Source: Candidatus Heimdallarchaeota archaeon (GTDB taxonomy: Archaea; Asgardarchaeota; Heimdallarchaeia; Heimdallarchaeales; Heimdallarchaeaceae). Taken from it: a stretch of 32,000 nt of DNA. This document shows positions 13,949-26,742 of the stretch, one piece after another (the first letter of the stretch is position 1; the number at the start of each line of letters is the position of its first letter). The stretch spans positions 60,001-92,000 of the forward strand of contig DAOVER010000001.1 of NCBI GenBank assembly GCA_030668875.1, given 5' to 3'. The notes beneath the pieces are model-generated. The model had not been told where the DNA came from and ran no database searches. It saw nothing but the letters and a program-made list of their open reading frames with translations. Position numbers and translations under genes: made by a program.

Positions 13949-13990
13949 ATAATCACATAGTTGTCGTTAGACAATAATTGGAGGTCTAAA

Positions 13991-16900
13991 ATGAAATTTA
14001 AAACAATTTTGGGTTCGACTTTAGTTGGTTTTACACTTATTCTGCTGACAATGAGTAGTACAGTTACTCAAGCTCATTTATCCTCACAGAATAACAGTTC
14101 AAACCTTGAAGTAGATCCAATATTTATTGAAGAAATGAATATTATAGCAGGTAAAGATTCAGCTGCACTAGTACAATTAATTTTACTAGGTGCGAGCGCT
14201 CCAACCATTGCATCAAACTCACTATTTGCAAGTGTTATAAATTGGTTATTTATTGCCTCAGATCAAGCAGATTATCTTCCATATCTTAATCGAAGACCTT
14301 TCAGAGCTGCAGATAATGCAACATTAATTTTAGAAATTGATGGCTCTTTAGGTGCTACTGGAAGTCTTGCTAAGGCTGTAGAAATAAGTATCCTTTTTGC
14401 AACATATTATGATGTAGGTTTGTTCTGGTCAGGAGCTGACAAACTTCTAAATAACAACTACCTATACTACTTCACAGGTGGTATGGAGAACACTATTTTC
14501 AATACTCTAATTACAGAGATAAGAGCTGATGTTGGTACAGGTTTTGCTTCACTACTTGACCCAGCAACAGTAAGTGGTGCTCCCGTAAAAACAGTTGTTA
14601 TTGGTGAAGGGTTTATTGAAGGAAGAATGCTTCCTGTTCGTGGAGTTTTCTACGTAGATGATGACGCTATTACAGGTACAACAACTTACACACTGTCAAC
14701 TTTAGAGTTGTTTGGAACAAATGTAGTTGCAAAAACTGGTATTGGGATATACTATTCTACACTAAAATTTAATTTCCCATATACAATTAATCCTCTCGAA
14801 ATATTCCCAAGAACAGATAACTTTGCCCCTCATATAACTGGAAAAATGGATTGGTTGCTTAATGCACCTTGGCGATTAGCTAGGCCAGCTCAAGATTACT
14901 ACGTTGTATTTGACATTAATCATGATGCGCTGACTTCAGCTCCAAGAGTTTCTGTAAATATGGCATATGATCAAGACATGCTAAACAATGCAGGTCGCTT
15001 ACAGATGGATTATGTTGTAACCAATACAGGAACAGAAAACGCAACAGATATTGATATCAGTTATTCACTTGGACCAGACTTTCTAGACTTTCTGGCTGCT
15101 AAACCAGATATGCCAGCACTTCGTCCAGATGTATATATAGATGAAACAGTATTAATCAAAATCAATGCATCAATTGATATTGAAGTAGGTCCTCAATTAG
15201 AAGGATGGGGTGTTGAAGATCAACATCACAACCAAATAGGTTTGGTGTTGGATGGTTGGTACAAATGGACTGCAAATGACTCACTAGTTGATTTTGATCC
15301 ATTACTCACTGATGTTGTTGTGAAATCAGATTCAGCCCAAATAGTAATTGTGCCAATTGTAGATGAACAAGTGACCACATCAATATCCTTGCATTGTGAT
15401 GACGGGCTTTCTAAAATACTAGTATCAACAGTAACAGCTTATCTAGCTGATATTGACATAACTGATTATATGCCTTACACTCTTGCAACAGTTCCGCTAA
15501 TGTTAGCAGATTATGAGACTGAACTATGGCTCGCTGTAGAAAATGCAGGAACTGAATTGTATGATTTGTTATATACAGAGCAATCTATCTTTGATCCTTA
15601 CTTAATGGACTTCACATTCTCTGTTCGAGATGTTGGAGTAATTGGATTAGATTCAGTTGAGGAAGTTTTCTTGAATACAACAATACCTTTCCTAGGTGTT
15701 GGTGAATCAGTCAATGTCAGTTGGGCATTAGACAACATTCCAGCTAAAGATGACTTCTTTGGAATTATGGGTGTTGAATTGATAGATAACGGAGATCCCG
15801 CAAACGCTGTGAAATTAACAACAGTTAAACAAACTGGTTATAACTTGATGAGATTGCTCTTTGGTTATGGAGATCCTGGCGCAACATTTACTTACAGTCG
15901 TCCACTCAGTTTCTATAGTCCCTGGGACAACAATTGGATTTCAGTAGGTGCTAGATATAGCTATCTCGATGAACAAGGTTTCGAATATTATGGTTTCAGT
16001 AATGGAATCAACTTACAAATTGCTGATGATGAAGCTGTTCTTAATGTCCATGTTTCATTAGATCAAACTGGTTACACAGTTGGAGACGCAATAACTGTAA
16101 CTTATTCTGTTACAAACACTGGAAATCTTGCTGCTGAAAATGTCAAAATCTATCTCTTCCATGGAAGAATGGGTAATGACTGGCAAATTAGAGATGCTAA
16201 ACTGTTCTACTATGATGATGTTGGAACAGTTGTTGCTGGTGGAAGTTACGTCGGAACAGCTGATGTTTTTGCCAATTCTTTCCTAGGAATTCATCCAGTT
16301 TATGCAGTAGCAGAATTTGACACTGACGTTGGTCAAACTGCATTATCTGATGGAATTGTTAACTTTGGAAACGGTTTAATTTCTATATTTGAAGGCGCAG
16401 CAGAAACTCACCATTTAGTACTATCTAATATGGATTGGGCTATGTTACTCCCCGACACAGAGAATAGAGAACCAGCATTCCCACAACCAATACTATCAAT
16501 CGATGTGTCTGTGTTGTTCATCATCCCAGATGATGCTCCTTGGGAATTAGAGATTTCTATTACTATCACCAACATTGGTGACGAGACTACTCACTTGACC
16601 ATCTATCAGATTTACAATGCAACTTCAATGGACTTATTACACAAAGAATCCACCAAAGGTAGCATTGCTAATGATACTGCTTATGGATTAGGTGTTATCG
16701 TCTTTCTAGGTATAACATTGGCTCCCGGTGAATCAGTTGAGATTACAATGAGATGGTTATTCCTCACAAGCAGTGGATGTTTCATTCCAGGTATTCGTAT
16801 AGTCTATGATAGTAGATTTGAGAACGAATTGGGTGATGATCCAATGGGAGATCCTCCAGAAGAAGACGTTATGACAGCGATGAATGGTGAAGCCCAAGAT

Positions 16901-17083
16901 AGTGAAGATTGGGAAGACTATGGAGAATCCACACAAACAGGTTCTTCAGCAGGTGCTGATGTCTTTACTGGTGGAGATAACACTCGTAGAACAGGATCAC
17001 TCGATGCCCTTTATTGGTCATTAGGTGCAATCTTTGTAGTTGCAACAGTTTCAACAATGTTGAGAAGAAAACTAAAACACTAA
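13991..17083 (+). CDS. Large secreted, C-terminally anchored surface protein with CARDB/DUF11-like Ig folds (1030 aa)
   Basis: A GGAGGT RBS precedes ATG 13991 (the ORF track starts at TTG 13961). Signal peptide MKFKTILG..TVTQA, three 'V(T/S)NTG/ITNIG' Ig-like motifs, an acidic linker, and a TM helix plus RRKLKH. Confidence 0.85.
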   Translation: MKFKTILGSTLVGFTLILLTMSSTVTQAHLSSQNNSSNLEVDPIFIEEMNIIAGKDSAALVQLILLGASAPTIASNSLFASVINWLFIASDQADYLPYLNRRPFRAADNATLILEIDGSLGATGSLAKAVEISILFATYYDVGLFWSGADKLLNNNYLYYFTGGMENTIFNTLITEIRADVGTGFASLLDPATVSGAPVKTVVIGEGFIEGRMLPVRGVFYVDDDAITGTTTYTLSTLELFGTNVVAKTGIGIYYSTLKFNFPYTINPLEIFPRTDNFAPHITGKMDWLLNAPWRLARPAQDYYVVFDINHDALTSAPRVSVNMAYDQDMLNNAGRLQMDYVVTNTGTENATDIDISYSLGPDFLDFLAAKPDMPALRPDVYIDETVLIKINASIDIEVGPQLEGWGVEDQHHNQIGLVLDGWYKWTANDSLVDFDPLLTDVVVKSDSAQIVIVPIVDEQVTTSISLHCDDGLSKILVSTVTAYLADIDITDYMPYTLATVPLMLADYETELWLAVENAGTELYDLLYTEQSIFDPYLMDFTFSVRDVGVIGLDSVEEVFLNTTIPFLGVGESVNVSWALDNIPAKDDFFGIMGVELIDNGDPANAVKLTTVKQTGYNLMRLLFGYGDPGATFTYSRPLSFYSPWDNNWISVGARYSYLDEQGFEYYGFSNGINLQIADDEAVLNVHVSLDQTGYTVGDAITVTYSVTNTGNLAAENVKIYLFHGRMGNDWQIRDAKLFYYDDVGTVVAGGSYVGTADVFANSFLGIHPVYAVAEFDTDVGQTALSDGIVNFGNGLISIFEGAAETHHLVLSNMDWAMLLPDTENREPAFPQPILSIDVSVLFIIPDDAPWELEISITITNIGDETTHLTIYQIYNATSMDLLHKESTKGSIANDTAYGLGVIVFLGITLAPGESVEITMRWLFLTSSGCFIPGIRIVYDSRFENELGDDPMGDPPEEDVMTAMNGEAQDSEDWEDYGESTQTGSSAGADVFTGGDNTRRTGSLDALYWSLGAIFVVATVSTMLRRKLKH

Positions 17084-20909: not shown

Positions 20910-21515
20910 GTGCTAATGGAAGAGGAGTTTCACAATACGGATGAAGTACAAGGTGACAAACCTGAAATTGTCAAACTTCCAGCAGCTATAACAGATGAAG
21001 AAAAAAGTGAATTGTTCAAAGAATTAACTACTATTCTGTCTAGAAGATGGGTTAAAGACAAGATATTCGTTTTTGGAAGTTCAGAGATTGATCTTCTACT
21101 TGCAACAAGATTTGACATTGATACGCTTCGTGAGATTATTGAAGAATACAAAAGATTTGTTGAAATTCTTGGATTGGAAGTAGTGGAATATACTCTTGAC
21201 GGTGAAATGTGGTATAGTTTAAAATCTGCATTTTATGCTCCTTCAGAATTAATGAAGAGCGAATTCGTTGTTCTTGGAACAATAATTGGGATCCTTGAAA
21301 CCCAGACAGAACCTCTTTTAACAAAGATAATTAAAGAAAAATTAATCGATACAAACAGAATGAAAGCGTATCAAGTTGATTTATGTTTACGAAAATTAAC
21401 ACAACAAGGCTATATAAAGAGACACCAGAATGTTTTGTCATATAATTATAGAACTCTAGTCGAATATGGAGAAGAAGAAAGGAGAAAAATAGCAGAGGAG
21501 TTTCGAAAAATTTGA
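20910..21515 (+). CDS. Putative KITE (tandem winged-helix, Nse1/Nse3/ScpB-like) subunit
   Basis: LREIIEEYKRFVEILGLEVVEYTLDGEMWYSL (WH-A) and VDLCLRKLTQQGYIKRHQNVLSYNYRTLVE (WH-B). The start could be ATG 20916. Confidence 0.68.
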   Translation: MLMEEEFHNTDEVQGDKPEIVKLPAAITDEEKSELFKELTTILSRRWVKDKIFVFGSSEIDLLLATRFDIDTLREIIEEYKRFVEILGLEVVEYTLDGEMWYSLKSAFYAPSELMKSEFVVLGTIIGILETQTEPLLTKIIKEKLIDTNRMKAYQVDLCLRKLTQQGYIKRHQNVLSYNYRTLVEYGEEERRKIAEEFRKI

Positions 21516-21967
21516 AAGAAATAGAAATTTTACACTGTTATATAAGATGTGCTTTTTGTAATTCATTGATGATGCTGAAAGAAGCTGCATTAGGAGGTTG
21601 GGAGGTTTGTAATGGATGTCAACTTGTGTTCTGTTCTAAATGTAAAAATGAATACAAATCATTAGAAGTGTGTCCTGGTTCAGTTTATGTCAGTGAGCAC
21701 AAACCAATTTTCGACTTATTGCCAATAGAACAAATATTTGATCTCTCTATGCAGATGCAAAGAAAACCAAAAGAAGGAAGGTTTGTTCCAAAGATATTTT
21801 TTGAAGATGAAAAAACAAAAGTGAACATCATAGAAAACAAAAGCAAACAGAAACAAGAAATGGATTTCAGCATAGTAAGGTTTAGAGAAGAACAATGGAG
21901 AAAATTCGGAACTGTTTTAGTTAAAAGAAAGGATGGAAAATTTCTCACTTGGGGTCAAATTGATTAA
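21512..21967 (+). CDS. RING-variant zinc-finger protein
   Basis: TTGA overlap with the KITE stop. C13-x2-C16-x16-C33-x2-C36-x4-C41-x2-C44-x9-C54(PG)-x8-H63. Confidence 0.75.
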   Translation: MKEIEILHCYIRCAFCNSLMMLKEAALGGWEVCNGCQLVFCSKCKNEYKSLEVCPGSVYVSEHKPIFDLLPIEQIFDLSMQMQRKPKEGRFVPKIFFEDEKTKVNIIENKSKQKQEMDFSIVRFREEQWRKFGTVLVKRKDGKFLTWGQID

Positions 21968-22151: not shown

Positions 22152-23633
22152 ATGAAAATAAAAAACATAACATTAATTACTATTTTGTTAACATCATTAA
22201 CTATTGGTCCTTTCTTATCGGTGAATGCAAAAACTGACTCTCCAATTACTCCAATTGCAACACCAGATGATACCGTGTTAACTATTGTTACAAGGCATGA
22301 TACAACAATACAAGCAGCTTTTACAACTGCTTTTCTTGCAACTCCAAGAGCCATAGAACTTGGAATCACTGACATGGTTTTCCTACAAGCAACAACAGAT
22401 GAAGGGTGGAAAAAACTGTTAGAAGATCCGTCAAAATCTGTAGATCTTGCATGGGGTGGCGGACCAGCATTATTCAATACCATGAATAACTGGGGATTGC
22501 TTAAACCAATTGACAATACGACTTTGGTTGATTACATCAATACAAATGTTCCTGATACAATTGCAGGAGCAGGTATGAAATTAAACAACACAAGTGGTGA
22601 TCTAATTTGGATTGCAAACGCTATATCCTCTTTTGGTTTTACTGTAAACCATGATTTCCTTGATCAATATGGTCTCCCAGTACCACGTACATGGGCAGAA
22701 CTAGCATCACCAACTTACTACATCGATCCAAGCGTAAAGGCTATTAGTATGGGTGATCCTCCTTTAACTACCTCAAATACAAGGATATACCAAATTATAC
22801 TCCAGGCATTTGGATGGGAAGAAGGATGGTCAATAATGACACGTATGGGTGCAAATTCTGGTATATATCCTGGTTCAGTTGACACTCGTGCTGCAGTAGT
22901 TCAAGGTGAAGTAGGAATCGCTATGACAATAGATTTTTATGGTGTTATTGCTGAAAGAGAAAACCCACGTACAGAATATATAATACCTGACAGGCAATCA
23001 ATTGTAAATGGAGATCCTATAGCCTTAGGAGCAAATGTAGATGATCAAGAAAAAGCAGAAGCATTTCTTGAATACCTGTTCTCAGATGAAGGACAAACGG
23101 TTTGGTTAACTGAGGGTCTTGATCGTCTTCCTGTAATGGAATCTGCTTTTTGGACACCAATAGGTCAAACCAAGGATGCGCTCTATATCCTTTATAATGA
23201 CACTTTAGCAAACGAAGGAATTCCATTCGATGAAATAGAAGCTACCGAACTGCTTGATGTAACAATTTACTATTTCCATAATACAATCACTGAGAAACAC
23301 CCCCTGTTACGTCAAACTTGGGGAGAAATGATTACTCAACTAGAAAACGAAGACATTAATGAAACTTATTTTGACGAATTAAAAGCAGATTTAGGAGTTG
23401 TGAATATGACTTACGAAGAAGCATTTGCTATTAATGTTGAATTCACTAGTGATCCTTTAGTCGCTGCTCAATATGAGAGTCAATGGAGAAACTTCGCTGG
23501 AACAAAATATAATGCAATATACCAAGCATTAACTGGAGAACCAACTACTTCACCATTCCCCACATTACCTATAGTATTTGCTATAGCTATATTAGCTGCT
23601 ATTCCAGTAATTCGTAAAAAACGCAGAAATTAG
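22152..23633 (+). CDS. ABC transporter substrate-binding protein (Fe3+/thiamine/AfuA-like family), C-terminally anchored
   Basis: Signal peptide, VDLAWGGGP, SSFGFTVN, GDPPLTTSN, VVQGEVGIAMTIDFYG, AEAFLEYLFSDEGQ, and a TM helix plus RKKRRN. Confidence 0.9.
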   Translation: MKIKNITLITILLTSLTIGPFLSVNAKTDSPITPIATPDDTVLTIVTRHDTTIQAAFTTAFLATPRAIELGITDMVFLQATTDEGWKKLLEDPSKSVDLAWGGGPALFNTMNNWGLLKPIDNTTLVDYINTNVPDTIAGAGMKLNNTSGDLIWIANAISSFGFTVNHDFLDQYGLPVPRTWAELASPTYYIDPSVKAISMGDPPLTTSNTRIYQIILQAFGWEEGWSIMTRMGANSGIYPGSVDTRAAVVQGEVGIAMTIDFYGVIAERENPRTEYIIPDRQSIVNGDPIALGANVDDQEKAEAFLEYLFSDEGQTVWLTEGLDRLPVMESAFWTPIGQTKDALYILYNDTLANEGIPFDEIEATELLDVTIYYFHNTITEKHPLLRQTWGEMITQLENEDINETYFDELKADLGVVNMTYEEAFAINVEFTSDPLVAAQYESQWRNFAGTKYNAIYQALTGEPTTSPFPTLPIVFAIAILAAIPVIRKKRRN

Positions 23634-23666
23634 AGGTATAACCTCTAATCCCTTTCTTTCTTTTTT
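23629..23666 (+). terminator. Hairpin plus U-tract terminator after the SBP gene
   Basis: Perfect 9-bp stem ATTAGAGGT-ATA-ACCTCTAAT (23629-23649), followed by CCCTTTCTTTCTTTTTT. Confidence 0.7.
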
Positions 23667-23793
23667 AATATTAAAATCTTTAATTTCTAGTGATTTTCCA
23701 GTAATTTTTCACGAATCTCTCTAAAATTTTAAGTAAAGTTCAAAAAGCATTAAGTTTATTGGCGTTTGACTAAAGATTTCTGGAAGAATTAAA

Positions 23794-26742
23794 ATGGCAA
23801 GCTCGAAAAAGAGAGAAAAGGATGAAAACAAGTCAACAAAAAAAACTAAACAAAAAAAATCTTTTCTTGATATGGTGTATATAAAATTACTCCGTGATCC
23901 TTCAACTAACTTAATTGTTGTTATTGTATCTATTGTCTTTATCATTTGGATGGTAGTTCCATTAGTCCTAGTTTTATCAGGTGGGGTCTACTTTAATGGT
24001 ATATGGTCTACTCAACCGATCAATACTGTGTTTACCGATGAAGTTCATTTCAATTTCCCTGGGGATACTACAACACATCTGTGGCAAATGGGAGTGCAGC
24101 AAATCGGGGGCCCATCAGTATCTGTAATTGTTCGAGATGACATTGCATTTGTTGCTGAAAGAGGAGAGGGTATTGAAATCCTTAATGTTACGGACCCAGA
24201 ATCACTCACGGAAATTATTGATTATTATGATAACGAGAGTTATTTCATGGATATGGAAATACGAGGTGATTATCTTTATACAGCAGCTGGTGAAAATGGA
24301 CTAACCATTTTTGACATTTCAGATGTATACAATACCTTTTTACCTGTAAGTTTCCTTCCTGGTTTGACTAATTATTCAAATTTCGTAACATTAGATAATA
24401 ACCTTATATACCTTGATAATAATAAAAAAGGATTTTCCATAATTGATGTTTCAGATGTCACTAATCCAGAAGTACTATCAAATATAACTATTGAAAGCGG
24501 TTCAGAAGACCTAGCTATCTTAGGAGATTATGCCTATATAGTTGGATCTGATGTTGCACTAGTTGTATATGATGTGAGTAATTCAAATAACCCAATCTTA
24601 GTGAATTCTTTTGATTATGAGATTAGTAATAGATCCATTACTACCAAAGCTATAGACATTGTAGGAAATTCGGCTTATGTTGCACTTGGGCTTTCTGGTT
24701 TGGCGATTTTTGATATTTCTGATCCGCTAAATATTTCTTTGTTAGGTTACAAATCTGACATAAAATCCGTTGGTGTTGATGTTGTAGGTGATTATAGTTA
24801 TGTAACTGTTCATGATGTTAGTGTTGATGATTATGGACTTACAATATTAGATACTTCTAACTTTTCAGATATCTCTGAAATAAGTTATTACAACACTACA
24901 CTTCTTATGACAGAAGATATTTTCATCGATGAAATATCAAACAGGATTTACCTTGCGCAAGGTAAAGGTGGAATCCATGTTATAGATGGTTCAAACATTC
25001 TAGCTTTAAGTTTTATGGGTGATTATAAGGATACAACAGATGTGAATGTCTTGCTCCTTAGTGGAGTAAATAGAGGCGTTGTAGTAAACACTATAATACT
25101 AGGATTATCAACAACTCTTTTCTCTGTAATATTAGGTACAGCATTGGCTTTTATCTTAGCAAGATTTGAGTTTCCTGGTAAAAGATTGGTTAGTATATTG
25201 GCACTAGCTCCTCTTATTATACCGCCGTTTATTTCTGGTATGGGATTCCGTCTAATTCTTGGTCCAAATGGTTTTTTAAACAATTTCTTCTTGGTTCCAA
25301 ATTTTGAATTCAAAATTATATTTGAAGGTTTCGTAGCAATTACCCTTGTTCAAACATCACATTTCTATGCTTTAGTTTATCTCAATGCATTTTCTTCCTT
25401 TATCAATATTGACCCAACAATGGAGGAGTCGGCAGAAAATTTGGGTGCTAGTAGTTTCAGATTGTTTAGCACTATAACACTCCCTCTTGCAATGCCCGGA
25501 ATTGGAGCAGGAGCAATATTAGTTTTAATCCTCTCAATGGAAGACGTTGGAACACCGATAATTTTTGCAGGTATGGGAGATCCTGCTGCAAAAAATTATC
25601 TGACGTATTATATTTTTGAAAACTATGCTAGAGCTGCGACGGTGGAAGTCACGCCTGAAGTGTGTGTTTTAGGTGGTATTTTGCTAATCATGGCAATCAT
25701 TGGATTTTTTGTGATTAGAAAGTATATCTCTCTCCGGAAATATTCTATGGTATCAAAAGGTCGAGCTGGACAATACCGTATGGCAAAAGCAGGATGGAAA
25801 TTGTTATTCATCTATCCATTCCTTATACTATTATTCGCATATTCGCTCATGGTGCATATAGGAGTGATTCTTATGTCTCTAATGACAACTCTGGGTGCTG
25901 GAAGCCCGAGTGAGATAAAATTCACGCTTGAAAATTATAGATTAATTTTCGTTTCTTCAGCCTACGATATACCGCCGTATTTGGTTAATACTTTATTATA
26001 TAGTGTAATCGCTACATTGCTGATAGTTGTTCTAGGTTCATTAGCAGCTTATGTAATAAGTAGAAAAGATTTCAGGGGTAAGCAACTTCTAGATGCTCTA
26101 GTAACTTTACCTATAGCTATCCCGGGGATCGTACTAGCGATTGGTTATTACAGAGCTTTTGATTGGAGTGGAATAGCTGCTGGTTACCCTCCCGAAACTC
26201 CAATAACTTCCTTTATGGGTTATTACCAAGCCTTTGATTGGAGTGCTATCCCTAGTATAGCAGTTACCAAATGGTTCGCGGAATCAATGGCATGGATGAC
26301 GGCATCTCTTCGTTTAGATCCATTTATCGGAGTAGCTGTTACCTTACTTATACTGAGCTATACCGTTAGAAAATTCCCATTTACAGTACGATCAGCTTAT
26401 GCAGGATTGCAACAAATGGACGTGGTCTTAGAGGAAGCAGCTTTTAATCTTGGAGCTAGTAGAGCAAAAACTTTCACAAGTATTACTATACCATTAATCT
26501 CCCTAAATGTTTTTGCTGGATCTCTTGTATCATTCCTCTATTGTTTATCTGAAGTATCAACAACAATATTCTTGATATTTCAGGCAAATGCTGGAACATT
26601 AACATGGTACATGGCATGGAATCCTTTGAAATTCCAGATATTTTGTGCATTAGGTGTTATATTGATGTTCTTGCAGATTGTAAGTCTATTCATAACCAAT
26701 ATTATCTTGGGATCAAGAGCAGAAGCTATAACTGGTATCTAA
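23794..26742 (+). CDS. ABC transporter permease (FbpB/ThiP-like, two fused TM modules) with an inserted LVIVD-repeat beta-propeller
   Basis: NTIILG..LAFILARFEFPGK..PLIIPPF, two EAA loops (EESAENLGAS and EEAAFNLGAS), and seven LVIVD repeats at about 24106-25035. Confidence 0.9.
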   Translation: MASSKKREKDENKSTKKTKQKKSFLDMVYIKLLRDPSTNLIVVIVSIVFIIWMVVPLVLVLSGGVYFNGIWSTQPINTVFTDEVHFNFPGDTTTHLWQMGVQQIGGPSVSVIVRDDIAFVAERGEGIEILNVTDPESLTEIIDYYDNESYFMDMEIRGDYLYTAAGENGLTIFDISDVYNTFLPVSFLPGLTNYSNFVTLDNNLIYLDNNKKGFSIIDVSDVTNPEVLSNITIESGSEDLAILGDYAYIVGSDVALVVYDVSNSNNPILVNSFDYEISNRSITTKAIDIVGNSAYVALGLSGLAIFDISDPLNISLLGYKSDIKSVGVDVVGDYSYVTVHDVSVDDYGLTILDTSNFSDISEISYYNTTLLMTEDIFIDEISNRIYLAQGKGGIHVIDGSNILALSFMGDYKDTTDVNVLLLSGVNRGVVVNTIILGLSTTLFSVILGTALAFILARFEFPGKRLVSILALAPLIIPPFISGMGFRLILGPNGFLNNFFLVPNFEFKIIFEGFVAITLVQTSHFYALVYLNAFSSFINIDPTMEESAENLGASSFRLFSTITLPLAMPGIGAGAILVLILSMEDVGTPIIFAGMGDPAAKNYLTYYIFENYARAATVEVTPEVCVLGGILLIMAIIGFFVIRKYISLRKYSMVSKGRAGQYRMAKAGWKLLFIYPFLILLFAYSLMVHIGVILMSLMTTLGAGSPSEIKFTLENYRLIFVSSAYDIPPYLVNTLLYSVIATLLIVVLGSLAAYVISRKDFRGKQLLDALVTLPIAIPGIVLAIGYYRAFDWSGIAAGYPPETPITSFMGYYQAFDWSAIPSIAVTKWFAESMAWMTASLRLDPFIGVAVTLLILSYTVRKFPFTVRSAYAGLQQMDVVLEEAAFNLGASRAKTFTSITIPLISLNVFAGSLVSFLYCLSEVSTTIFLIFQANAGTLTWYMAWNPLKFQIFCALGVILMFLQIVSLFITNIILGSRAEAITGI
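24106..25035 (+). repeat. Seven protein-level LVIVD repeats
   Basis: GIEILNVTDP, GLTIFDISD, GFSIIDVSDVTNP, LVVYDVSNSNNP, GLAIFDISDP, GLTILDTSN and GIHVIDGSN, each preceded by a (Y/A)(A/L/I)Y-like strand. Confidence 0.85.
26143..26250 (+). repeat. In-frame imperfect direct repeat (33 nt, period 75 nt) inside the permease
   Basis: GGTTATTACAGAGCTTTTGATTGGAGTGGAATA (26143-26175) versus GGTTATTACCAAGCCTTTGATTGGAGTGCTATC (26218-26250), 27/33 identical. Confidence 0.8.

Follow-up and report, generated by a model that had tools for sequence, protein, structure and literature searches.

To our knowledge, RING-type ligases form an integral part of just one SMC complex, eukaryotic SMC5/6, which contains Nse1 and Nse2. 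The variant RING of Nse1 carries the zinc-ligand signature C4HC3 and contributes structurally to the Nse1/3/4 trimer (PMC8750328). Operons of the SMC-kleisin-kite type, related to SMC5/6, have been described from TACK and Asgard archaea (Yoshinaga and Inagaki 2021, PMC8665677; van Hooff et al., bioRxiv 10.1101/2024.01.07.573240), and van Hooff et al. report that archaeal kites lack the Nse1 RING, which they call a eukaryotic innovation. Here we describe a small gene for a zinc-finger protein (the finger) that directly follows the KITE gene of such an operon in a Candidatus Heimdallarchaeota archaeon. It lies in a 32,000-nt stretch of DNA (assembly GCA_030668875.1, contig DAOVER010000001.1, positions 60,001 to 92,000 of the forward strand), referred to below as the window, in whose numbering positions are given; handles such as L024, G147, f16 or P0135 are our own labels for other loci, genomes, families and finger proteins.

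The locus agrees with the published archaeal operons in operon type, in phylum, in an SMC closest to Smc5/6 and in a KITE resembling Nse1/Nse3 and ScpB. It differs in gene number: both papers describe three genes and mention no linked zinc finger in the sections searched, whereas here the finger gene forms a fourth. Nothing on an Asgard SMC-linked zinc finger or RING was found in the literature searched. We propose that the finger, which combines a RING-like head, a linker and a C-terminal module and is encoded by a separate cistron coupled to the KITE gene through a TTG start, is probably the fourth subunit of an Asgard SMC5/6-like SMC-kleisin-KITE complex. An earlier note on this DNA had read the gene as Nse1 split in two or as part of a hidden KITE-RING fusion. 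Its description of a stand-alone RING-like gene beside a KITE in an SMC5/6-type setting holds, but the fusion is rejected, the Nse1 Pfam models find no match and the ligand signature differs from that of Nse1.

A separate cistron overlapping the KITE stop codon

The translated finger gene has the ligand spacing C13-x2-C16-x16-C33-x2-C36-x4-C41-x2-C44-x9-C54-P-G-x6-H63. Ahead of its first CxxC, ATG and GTG are absent and TTG occurs once, at 21512-21514, overlapping the KITE stop TGA (21513-21515). The finger frame lies at -1 relative to the KITE, is open from 21452, just after a TAG at 21449-21451, and contains a run of five A at 21506-21510. The ligand spacing, the overlapping TTG, the open frame at -1 and the A5 run had been reported in the earlier note and are reproduced here.

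Homologous loci from 12 species of the same genus, with 59-94% protein identity, show how strongly this junction is conserved. The arrangement ATT-TGA/TTG is identical at 12/12 loci, each with the KITE directly upstream. The last KITE codon is ATT at every one of them, against a background in which ATT makes up 49% of Ile codons across both genes, and the KITE stop is TGA at 12/12, against TAA as the finger gene's own stop at 9/12. Such uniformity despite the codon and stop background is the pattern expected under selection on an embedded TTG start. The motif GAGGAG, 12 nt ahead of the TTG and likewise present at 12/12 loci, may act as a ribosome-binding site; it doubles as the codons for a conserved Glu-Glu of the KITE tail. 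Overlap of the conserved TTG with the KITE stop (TTGA) would couple synthesis of the finger to that of the KITE. The finger open reading frame (ORF) is therefore an independent cistron and not a frameshifted KITE tail.

In distant relatives (~25-36% identity) the finger starts at an ATG of its own, which either follows a spacer of 13, 20, 23 or 44 nt or overlaps the KITE by 1-4 nt. The spacers carry Shine-Dalgarno (SD)-like motifs resembling GAGGAGGAG or GAGGTGA; KITE stops are TGA, TAG or TAA, and the frame offsets vary. Within the source's genus the finger occurs in 20 of 23 genomes, and its ~30 close homologues, all stand-alone, measure 99-151 aa. The family has no Pfam model and its database annotation is hypothetical only. 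Many public gene calls give 131-133 aa (for example P0016 and P0019-P0027), starting at an internal Met and so lacking the first CxxC, since translation truly begins at the TTG that overlaps the KITE stop; these short calls look like an annotation artefact.

Strict linkage to SMC, kleisin and KITE genes

A KITE homologue stands directly 5' of the finger at every locus with scorable homology, down to ~25% identity, and kleisin and SMC homologues adjoin the pair at distant loci as well. The order SMC-kleisin-KITE-finger recurs in three further Asgard families. KITE-finger adjacency also survives rearrangement of the cluster, with a divergent SMC-kleisin pair at L020 and an SMC on the opposite strand at L024. 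At the latter locus an IS605 OrfB fragment (L024:4742-5098) sits between the inverted SMC and the kleisin-KITE-finger genes.

Among 150 sampled genomes of the phylum, the finger and strong KITE matches coincide genome by genome, and wherever both are listed they are neighbours on the same strand. The pair is found in 10/12 genomes of f1, in 19/19 of f16 (KITE matches in 16/19) and in single genomes of f2, f4, f6, f9 and f14; in the same sample it is absent from f3 (0/4), f5 (0/7), f10 (0/26) and f13 (0/25). Named records of finger proteins come from Heimdallarchaeota, Kariarchaeaceae and Hodarchaeales. The earlier note had considered that the finger might lack synteny with the SMC in relatives; instead it always accompanies KITE, SMC and kleisin homologues, in association with an SMC of the SMC5/6 type.

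The identity of these partners rests on several kinds of evidence. The top solved-structure sequence matches of the operon SMC are yeast Smc6 (7.6e-9) and Smc5 (1.9e-8). For the KITE, profiles against PDB sequences returned only generic winged-helix matches (SarS, Cdc53 and eS10), so its identification needed a fold search. The predicted model (pLDDT 84) has the tandem winged-helix fold of ScpB, MukE, Nse1 and Nse3; Nse1/Nse3 and ScpB are tied as structural matches, at most 1 Z unit apart, and yeast Smc5/6 chains, MukE and JetB are further matches. The 251-aa protein between SMC and KITE gave zero Pfam, NCBIfam or PDB sequence matches, a six-member profile included, and we infer that it is the kleisin from its position and from the conserved homologues found between SMC and KITE.

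A RING-like head with two interleaved zinc sites

Ligand conservation was assessed in 41 family members aligned to the family profile. C33, C36 and C54 are all but invariant. H63 provides the eighth ligand in 28 members, and all 9 without H63 have a Cys at position 59; the two never occur together, and one of them is always present. Most members have Cys, His or Asp as ligand 2, and ligand 5 is Cys or Asp in relatives. Two proteins (P0135 and P0137) have lost ligands 1, 2, 5 and 6 jointly while keeping 3, 4, 7 and 8. That the first and third ligand pairs disappear together argues for a cross-brace and against sequential fingers, and on this pattern the eight ligands are predicted to form two interleaved zinc sites, with C13, C16, C41 and C44 as site 1 and C33, C36, C54 and H63 as site 2.

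In the AF2 model, residues 8-82 are predicted with confidence (block means 79-87), residues 83-117 are disordered, and confidence is low over 118-151. With the finger model, Foldseek returned no match at E <=0.001, the best being the RNF4 RING at E 0.1. In two VIA searches nearly every listed neighbour is a RING, U-box, ZZ or SP-RING domain, the listed structural neighbours including RNF4, U-box, p44/Ssl1 and Nse2 domains. Neighbours by shape in the ESM Atlas are RING-finger clusters; a sequence-feature search of the Atlas with the finger gave no usable match. No Pfam RING model exceeded its curated threshold in 26 members, among the matches listed, and sub-threshold matches appeared in few of them (zf-RING_UBOX at 1.9e-4, zf-C3HC4 at 1e-3, zf-RING_4, FYVE_2, B-box and IBR). 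The absolute scores are weak, but the class of neighbours is consistent and agrees with the ligand covariation, so that the model is consistent with the RING/U-box fold class. A FYVE- or IBR-like finger, which the earlier note had named as a contrary outcome, is not what the modelled structure indicates; FYVE_2 and IBR appear only as sub-threshold Pfam matches in single members.

Behind the head, the linker is Lys-rich in the source's genus, and its basic character is not conserved across the wider family. The C-terminal module, on the other hand, has an invariant W129 and nearly invariant E127, R139, G142 and W147.

A finger paralogue in a ubiquitin-like cassette

Two genomes of f16 from different genera (G147, L031:6752-13096; G050, L026:901-4624) carry a gene cluster divergently upstream of the SMC. 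It encodes a small protein with a slight YukD signal, a 249-aa E2-like protein, a 100-aa protein, a finger paralogue of 128-131 aa, a transglutaminase-like peptidase, a ThiF E1-like protein, a Prok-JAB protein and an XPB-like helicase. The nearest Atlas clusters of the 249-aa protein are E2 enzymes (score 0.93), and the cluster looks like a non-canonical ubiquitin-like conjugation cassette. With the E2-like protein as query, the cassette was found in f6 and f9 genomes; it was found neither in the source genome nor in a closed genome of its family, and none lies within the window. Genes matching UQ_con occur in 108/150 genomes, with four in the source genome.

The cassette paralogue retains all eight ligands, W30 and the CPG motif at nearly the same spacing, and it lacks the C-terminal module. 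Ligand 5 is Asp (F-I-D-P-x-C) in the SMC-linked fingers of f16 (L026:9181-9639 and L031:1534-1995) and Cys in the paralogue. Because the C-terminal module is confined to the SMC-linked form, we infer that it anchors the finger on the SMC complex. In the mechanism that we propose, this module would dock the finger on the SMC-kleisin-KITE complex, while the RING-like head would mediate protein contacts, possibly with an E2-like enzyme. A complex prediction for KITE and finger (score 0.05, mark 0.32) counts neither for nor against binding.

Comparison with Nse1 and other RING-type domains

The likeness to Nse1 lies in the succession of a tandem winged-helix KITE and a two-zinc cross-brace in an SMC5/6-type SMC-kleisin-KITE setting. 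The differences are substantial. Every lineage encodes KITE and finger in two genes where Nse1 is a single chain; one KITE gene takes the place of an Nse1/Nse3 pair; and the finger adds a linker and a conserved C-terminal module, the latter without counterpart in Nse1. In place of C4HC3, the finger's ligands read C, C, C, C, C, C, C, H, or C8 in the members with C59, and its last pair is C-x8-H or C-x4-C where Nse1 has C-x2-C. At the finger locus neither SMC_Nse1 (PF07574) nor zf-RING-like (PF08746), the model of the Nse1 RING, finds a match, and both are absent from the Pfam scan of 26 members, among the matches listed. PF08746 has no match in the source genome at E up to 10. The sole genome match of PF07574 (E 0.02; G000:C5:3300-4265, L029:1298-2266, a 322-aa ORF) is the C-terminal part of an ABC-transporter ATPase and was discarded as chance. 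No Nse1 chain was among the matches listed for the finger model in Foldseek and VIA, which is not evidence either way. Given that the one-chain, C4HC3 and Nse1 Pfam features fail, we keep only as a hypothesis by analogy that the finger might work like the Nse1 RING.

By measures that are themselves weak, the C4C4 RING of p44/Ssl1 and the SP-RING of Nse2 would be as close to the finger as Nse1 is, or closer. The profile match with the C-terminal C4C4 RING of TFIIH p44/Ssl1 is not significant (E 2.7); p44 has a vWA domain, belongs to TFIIH and has no SMC context. Nse2/Mms21 has its helical anchor at the N-terminus and its SP-RING at the C-terminus, the reverse of the finger's order, and shares no sequence similarity with it; most finger members have two zinc sites. 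Compared with canonical RING and U-box domains (RNF4, Prp19), the finger has four, not two, residues between ligands 4 and 5 and an atypical last pair; it exceeds the threshold of no Pfam RING model and keeps the E2-contact residues only partly.

Alternative explanations

If a single-base sequencing error, or a programmed -1 frameshift near the A5 run, hid a continuous KITE-RING chain with Nse1 architecture, the 20 open codons upstream of the TTG and the A5 run itself would be accounted for. The same two-gene junction, however, is seen across 12 species and independent assemblies. Finger-frame stops in relatives fall 2-20 codons 5' of the TTG at differing places, just two codons 5' of it in three of the 12 species, and the residues encoded there are not conserved; nor is the A run, which is interrupted in most species. 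The spacers, ATG starts and SD-like motifs of distant relatives likewise contradict a fusion. Neither hallmark of a programmed -1 site, a conserved heptamer or a downstream stimulatory structure, is present: the KITE frame has no X XXY YYZ slippery heptamer, and the RNA at 21490-21610 folds no better than shuffled sequence (z -0.58). The earlier note had called for an indel check at the A5 run and for fused orthologues in other Asgard genomes. Contigs from four public runs (one study, possibly the source of this DNA) match across the junction without indel or difference, although a rare indel variant could have escaped this comparison. A word-based search among longer proteins yielded no KITE-finger fusion, and when 1.84 billion representatives were searched exhaustively with the profile, the 42 matches measured 69-192 aa, again with no fusion; two long profile matches, an Ig-repeat protein and a Stc1-domain protein, were set aside as spurious repeat matches. 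A scan of 150 Asgard genomes found no fused form, and all 35 carriers among them have open finger frames of 149-203 aa. KITE and RING are in separate polypeptides at the 12 genus loci, at 7 distant loci and in all 35 carrier genomes, and we regard a hidden fusion as extremely improbable. Under the Rosetta-stone proposal, the finger would be a free-standing homologue of the Nse1 variant RING, and Nse1 would have arisen by fusion of adjacent KITE and RING genes. The gene order, with the KITE followed by a finger whose domain is N-terminal in its protein, is that of Nse1; the operon SMC is of the Smc5/6 type; family members come from Heimdallarchaeia, one record bearing the name Hodarchaeales; and the middle ligand spacings agree with the Nse1 pattern, which we take to be x2, x4, x2. 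The unmatched Nse1 Pfam models, the divergent fifth ligand (Cys or Asp) and last pair, and the extra C-terminal module speak against homology, as does the proneness of cross-brace fingers to convergence. On balance homology to the Nse1 RING seems unlikely. The fuller scenario, in which the finger represents the free-living ancestor type of that RING, the SMC5/6-like KITE/kleisin module of the Asgard ancestors of eukaryotes already bore a RING-fold subunit that coupled it to ubiquitin-like conjugation, and Nse1 came about by later fusion, is if anything a little less likely.

Two further explanations concern what the finger does. It could be an E3-type adaptor that recruits a ubiquitin or ubiquitin-like conjugating enzyme to the SMC complex. 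Sharing of the finger head with a paralogue near E1-like, E2-like and JAB genes beside the f16 SMC operon makes such a role plausible, and the RING/U-box fold of the model, the four UQ_con genes of the source genome and the retention in the wider family of a C-x2-C-[IL]-x2-aromatic helix motif and a Pro after ligand 7, as in many RINGs, point the same way. Against it, the cassette is missing by the E2-like query from the source genome and from the closed genome of the same family, and a finger-bearing genome that is 93% complete (G043) has no UQ_con match, though an E2-like protein is present. UQ_con also reaches far beyond the finger, with matches in 108 of 150 genomes against 35 finger carriers, and E2-contact residues are unconserved in the source's genus. 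Many RING-fold domains are purely structural, that of p44 being an example. We therefore hold ligase-type activity to be possible but doubtful. A finger unrelated to SMC function, acting as a small nucleic-acid-binding zinc protein or as a merely co-transcribed regulator, would suit the weak zinc-ribbon profile matches (RPA12 at E 0.018, and Zn_ribbon_RPB9) and the Lys-rich linker of the source's genus. Strict KITE adjacency despite cluster rearrangements and divergence to ~25% identity, the lack of a conserved basic linker in the wider family, and structural neighbours that are RING/U-box domains and not ribbons make it quite improbable. The reading of the finger as a fourth subunit of the SMC complex is the one that we favour.

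The operon and its surroundings

The four genes are co-oriented (Table 1). The listed start of the KITE is a GTG; relatives' Met aligns with an ATG at 20916, which is the likely true start.

Table 1. Features of the finger gene and its operon, in window coordinates.
Feature	Position	Strand	Remarks
SMC-like ATPase, SMC5/6-related type, 990 aa	17177..20149	+	operon gene 1; Pfam SMC_N/AAA_15
Kleisin candidate, 251 aa	20146..20901	+	start overlaps SMC stop by 4 nt (ATGA)
KITE (tandem winged helix), 201 aa	20910..21515	+	identified by fold search
Open stretch upstream of TTG in finger frame	21452..21511	+	non-coding in that frame; residues unconserved, relatives' stops vary
GAGGAG, Shine-Dalgarno-like	21494..21499	+	12 nt ahead of TTG; in 12/12 genus loci
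TTGA junction	21512..21515	+	finger TTG start over KITE TGA stop; putative translational coupling
Zinc-finger gene, 151 aa	21512..21967	+	own cistron; homologues of 145-192 aa, all stand-alone
RING-like cross-brace domain, residues 8-72	21533..21727	+	N-terminal; predicted ligands C13, C16, C33, C36, C41, C44, C54, H63
Lys-rich linker, residues 83-117	21758..21862	+	predicted disordered, pLDDT <50; poorly aligned and length-variable in wider family
C-terminal strand-helix-hairpin module, residues 118-151	21863..21964	+	most conserved part of the protein

Upstream, the operon is flanked by a gene for a 1040-aa CARDB/DUF11 surface protein (13961-17083) and downstream by genes for an ABC solute-binding protein and a 982-aa permease (22152-26742). 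A scan for bacterial-type promoters and terminators, which is ill-suited to archaea, gave no more matches than shuffled sequence. A Wadjet- or Lamassu-type assignment was dropped: PADLOC defence models returned generic SMC-like matches for the ATPase only and none for the other three proteins.

Neither a canonical SMC nor ScpB was found in the source genome, which is 92% complete. Two closed genomes of the source's family (G064 and G108, each a single contig) have the ~1000-aa operon SMC as their best SMC_N match, and a ~1200-aa canonical SMC is found in neither, whereas genomes of f6 and f16 carry both. As judged from these gene inventories, the four-gene operon may encode the sole SMC complex of the source's family.

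Implications for Asgard chromosome biology

A finger tied genetically to an Asgard SMC5/6-like KITE is a concrete candidate for a pre-eukaryotic RING subunit, and its pairing with the KITE may bear on the origin of Nse1. If the finger were of the ancestor type of the Nse1 RING, an outcome that we consider unlikely, the published view of that RING as a eukaryotic innovation would be overturned. The f16 operon beside an E1/E2-like/JAB cassette hints at a ligase-type function. Since the operon apparently encodes the only SMC complex of the source's family, the finger may act in core chromosome biology.
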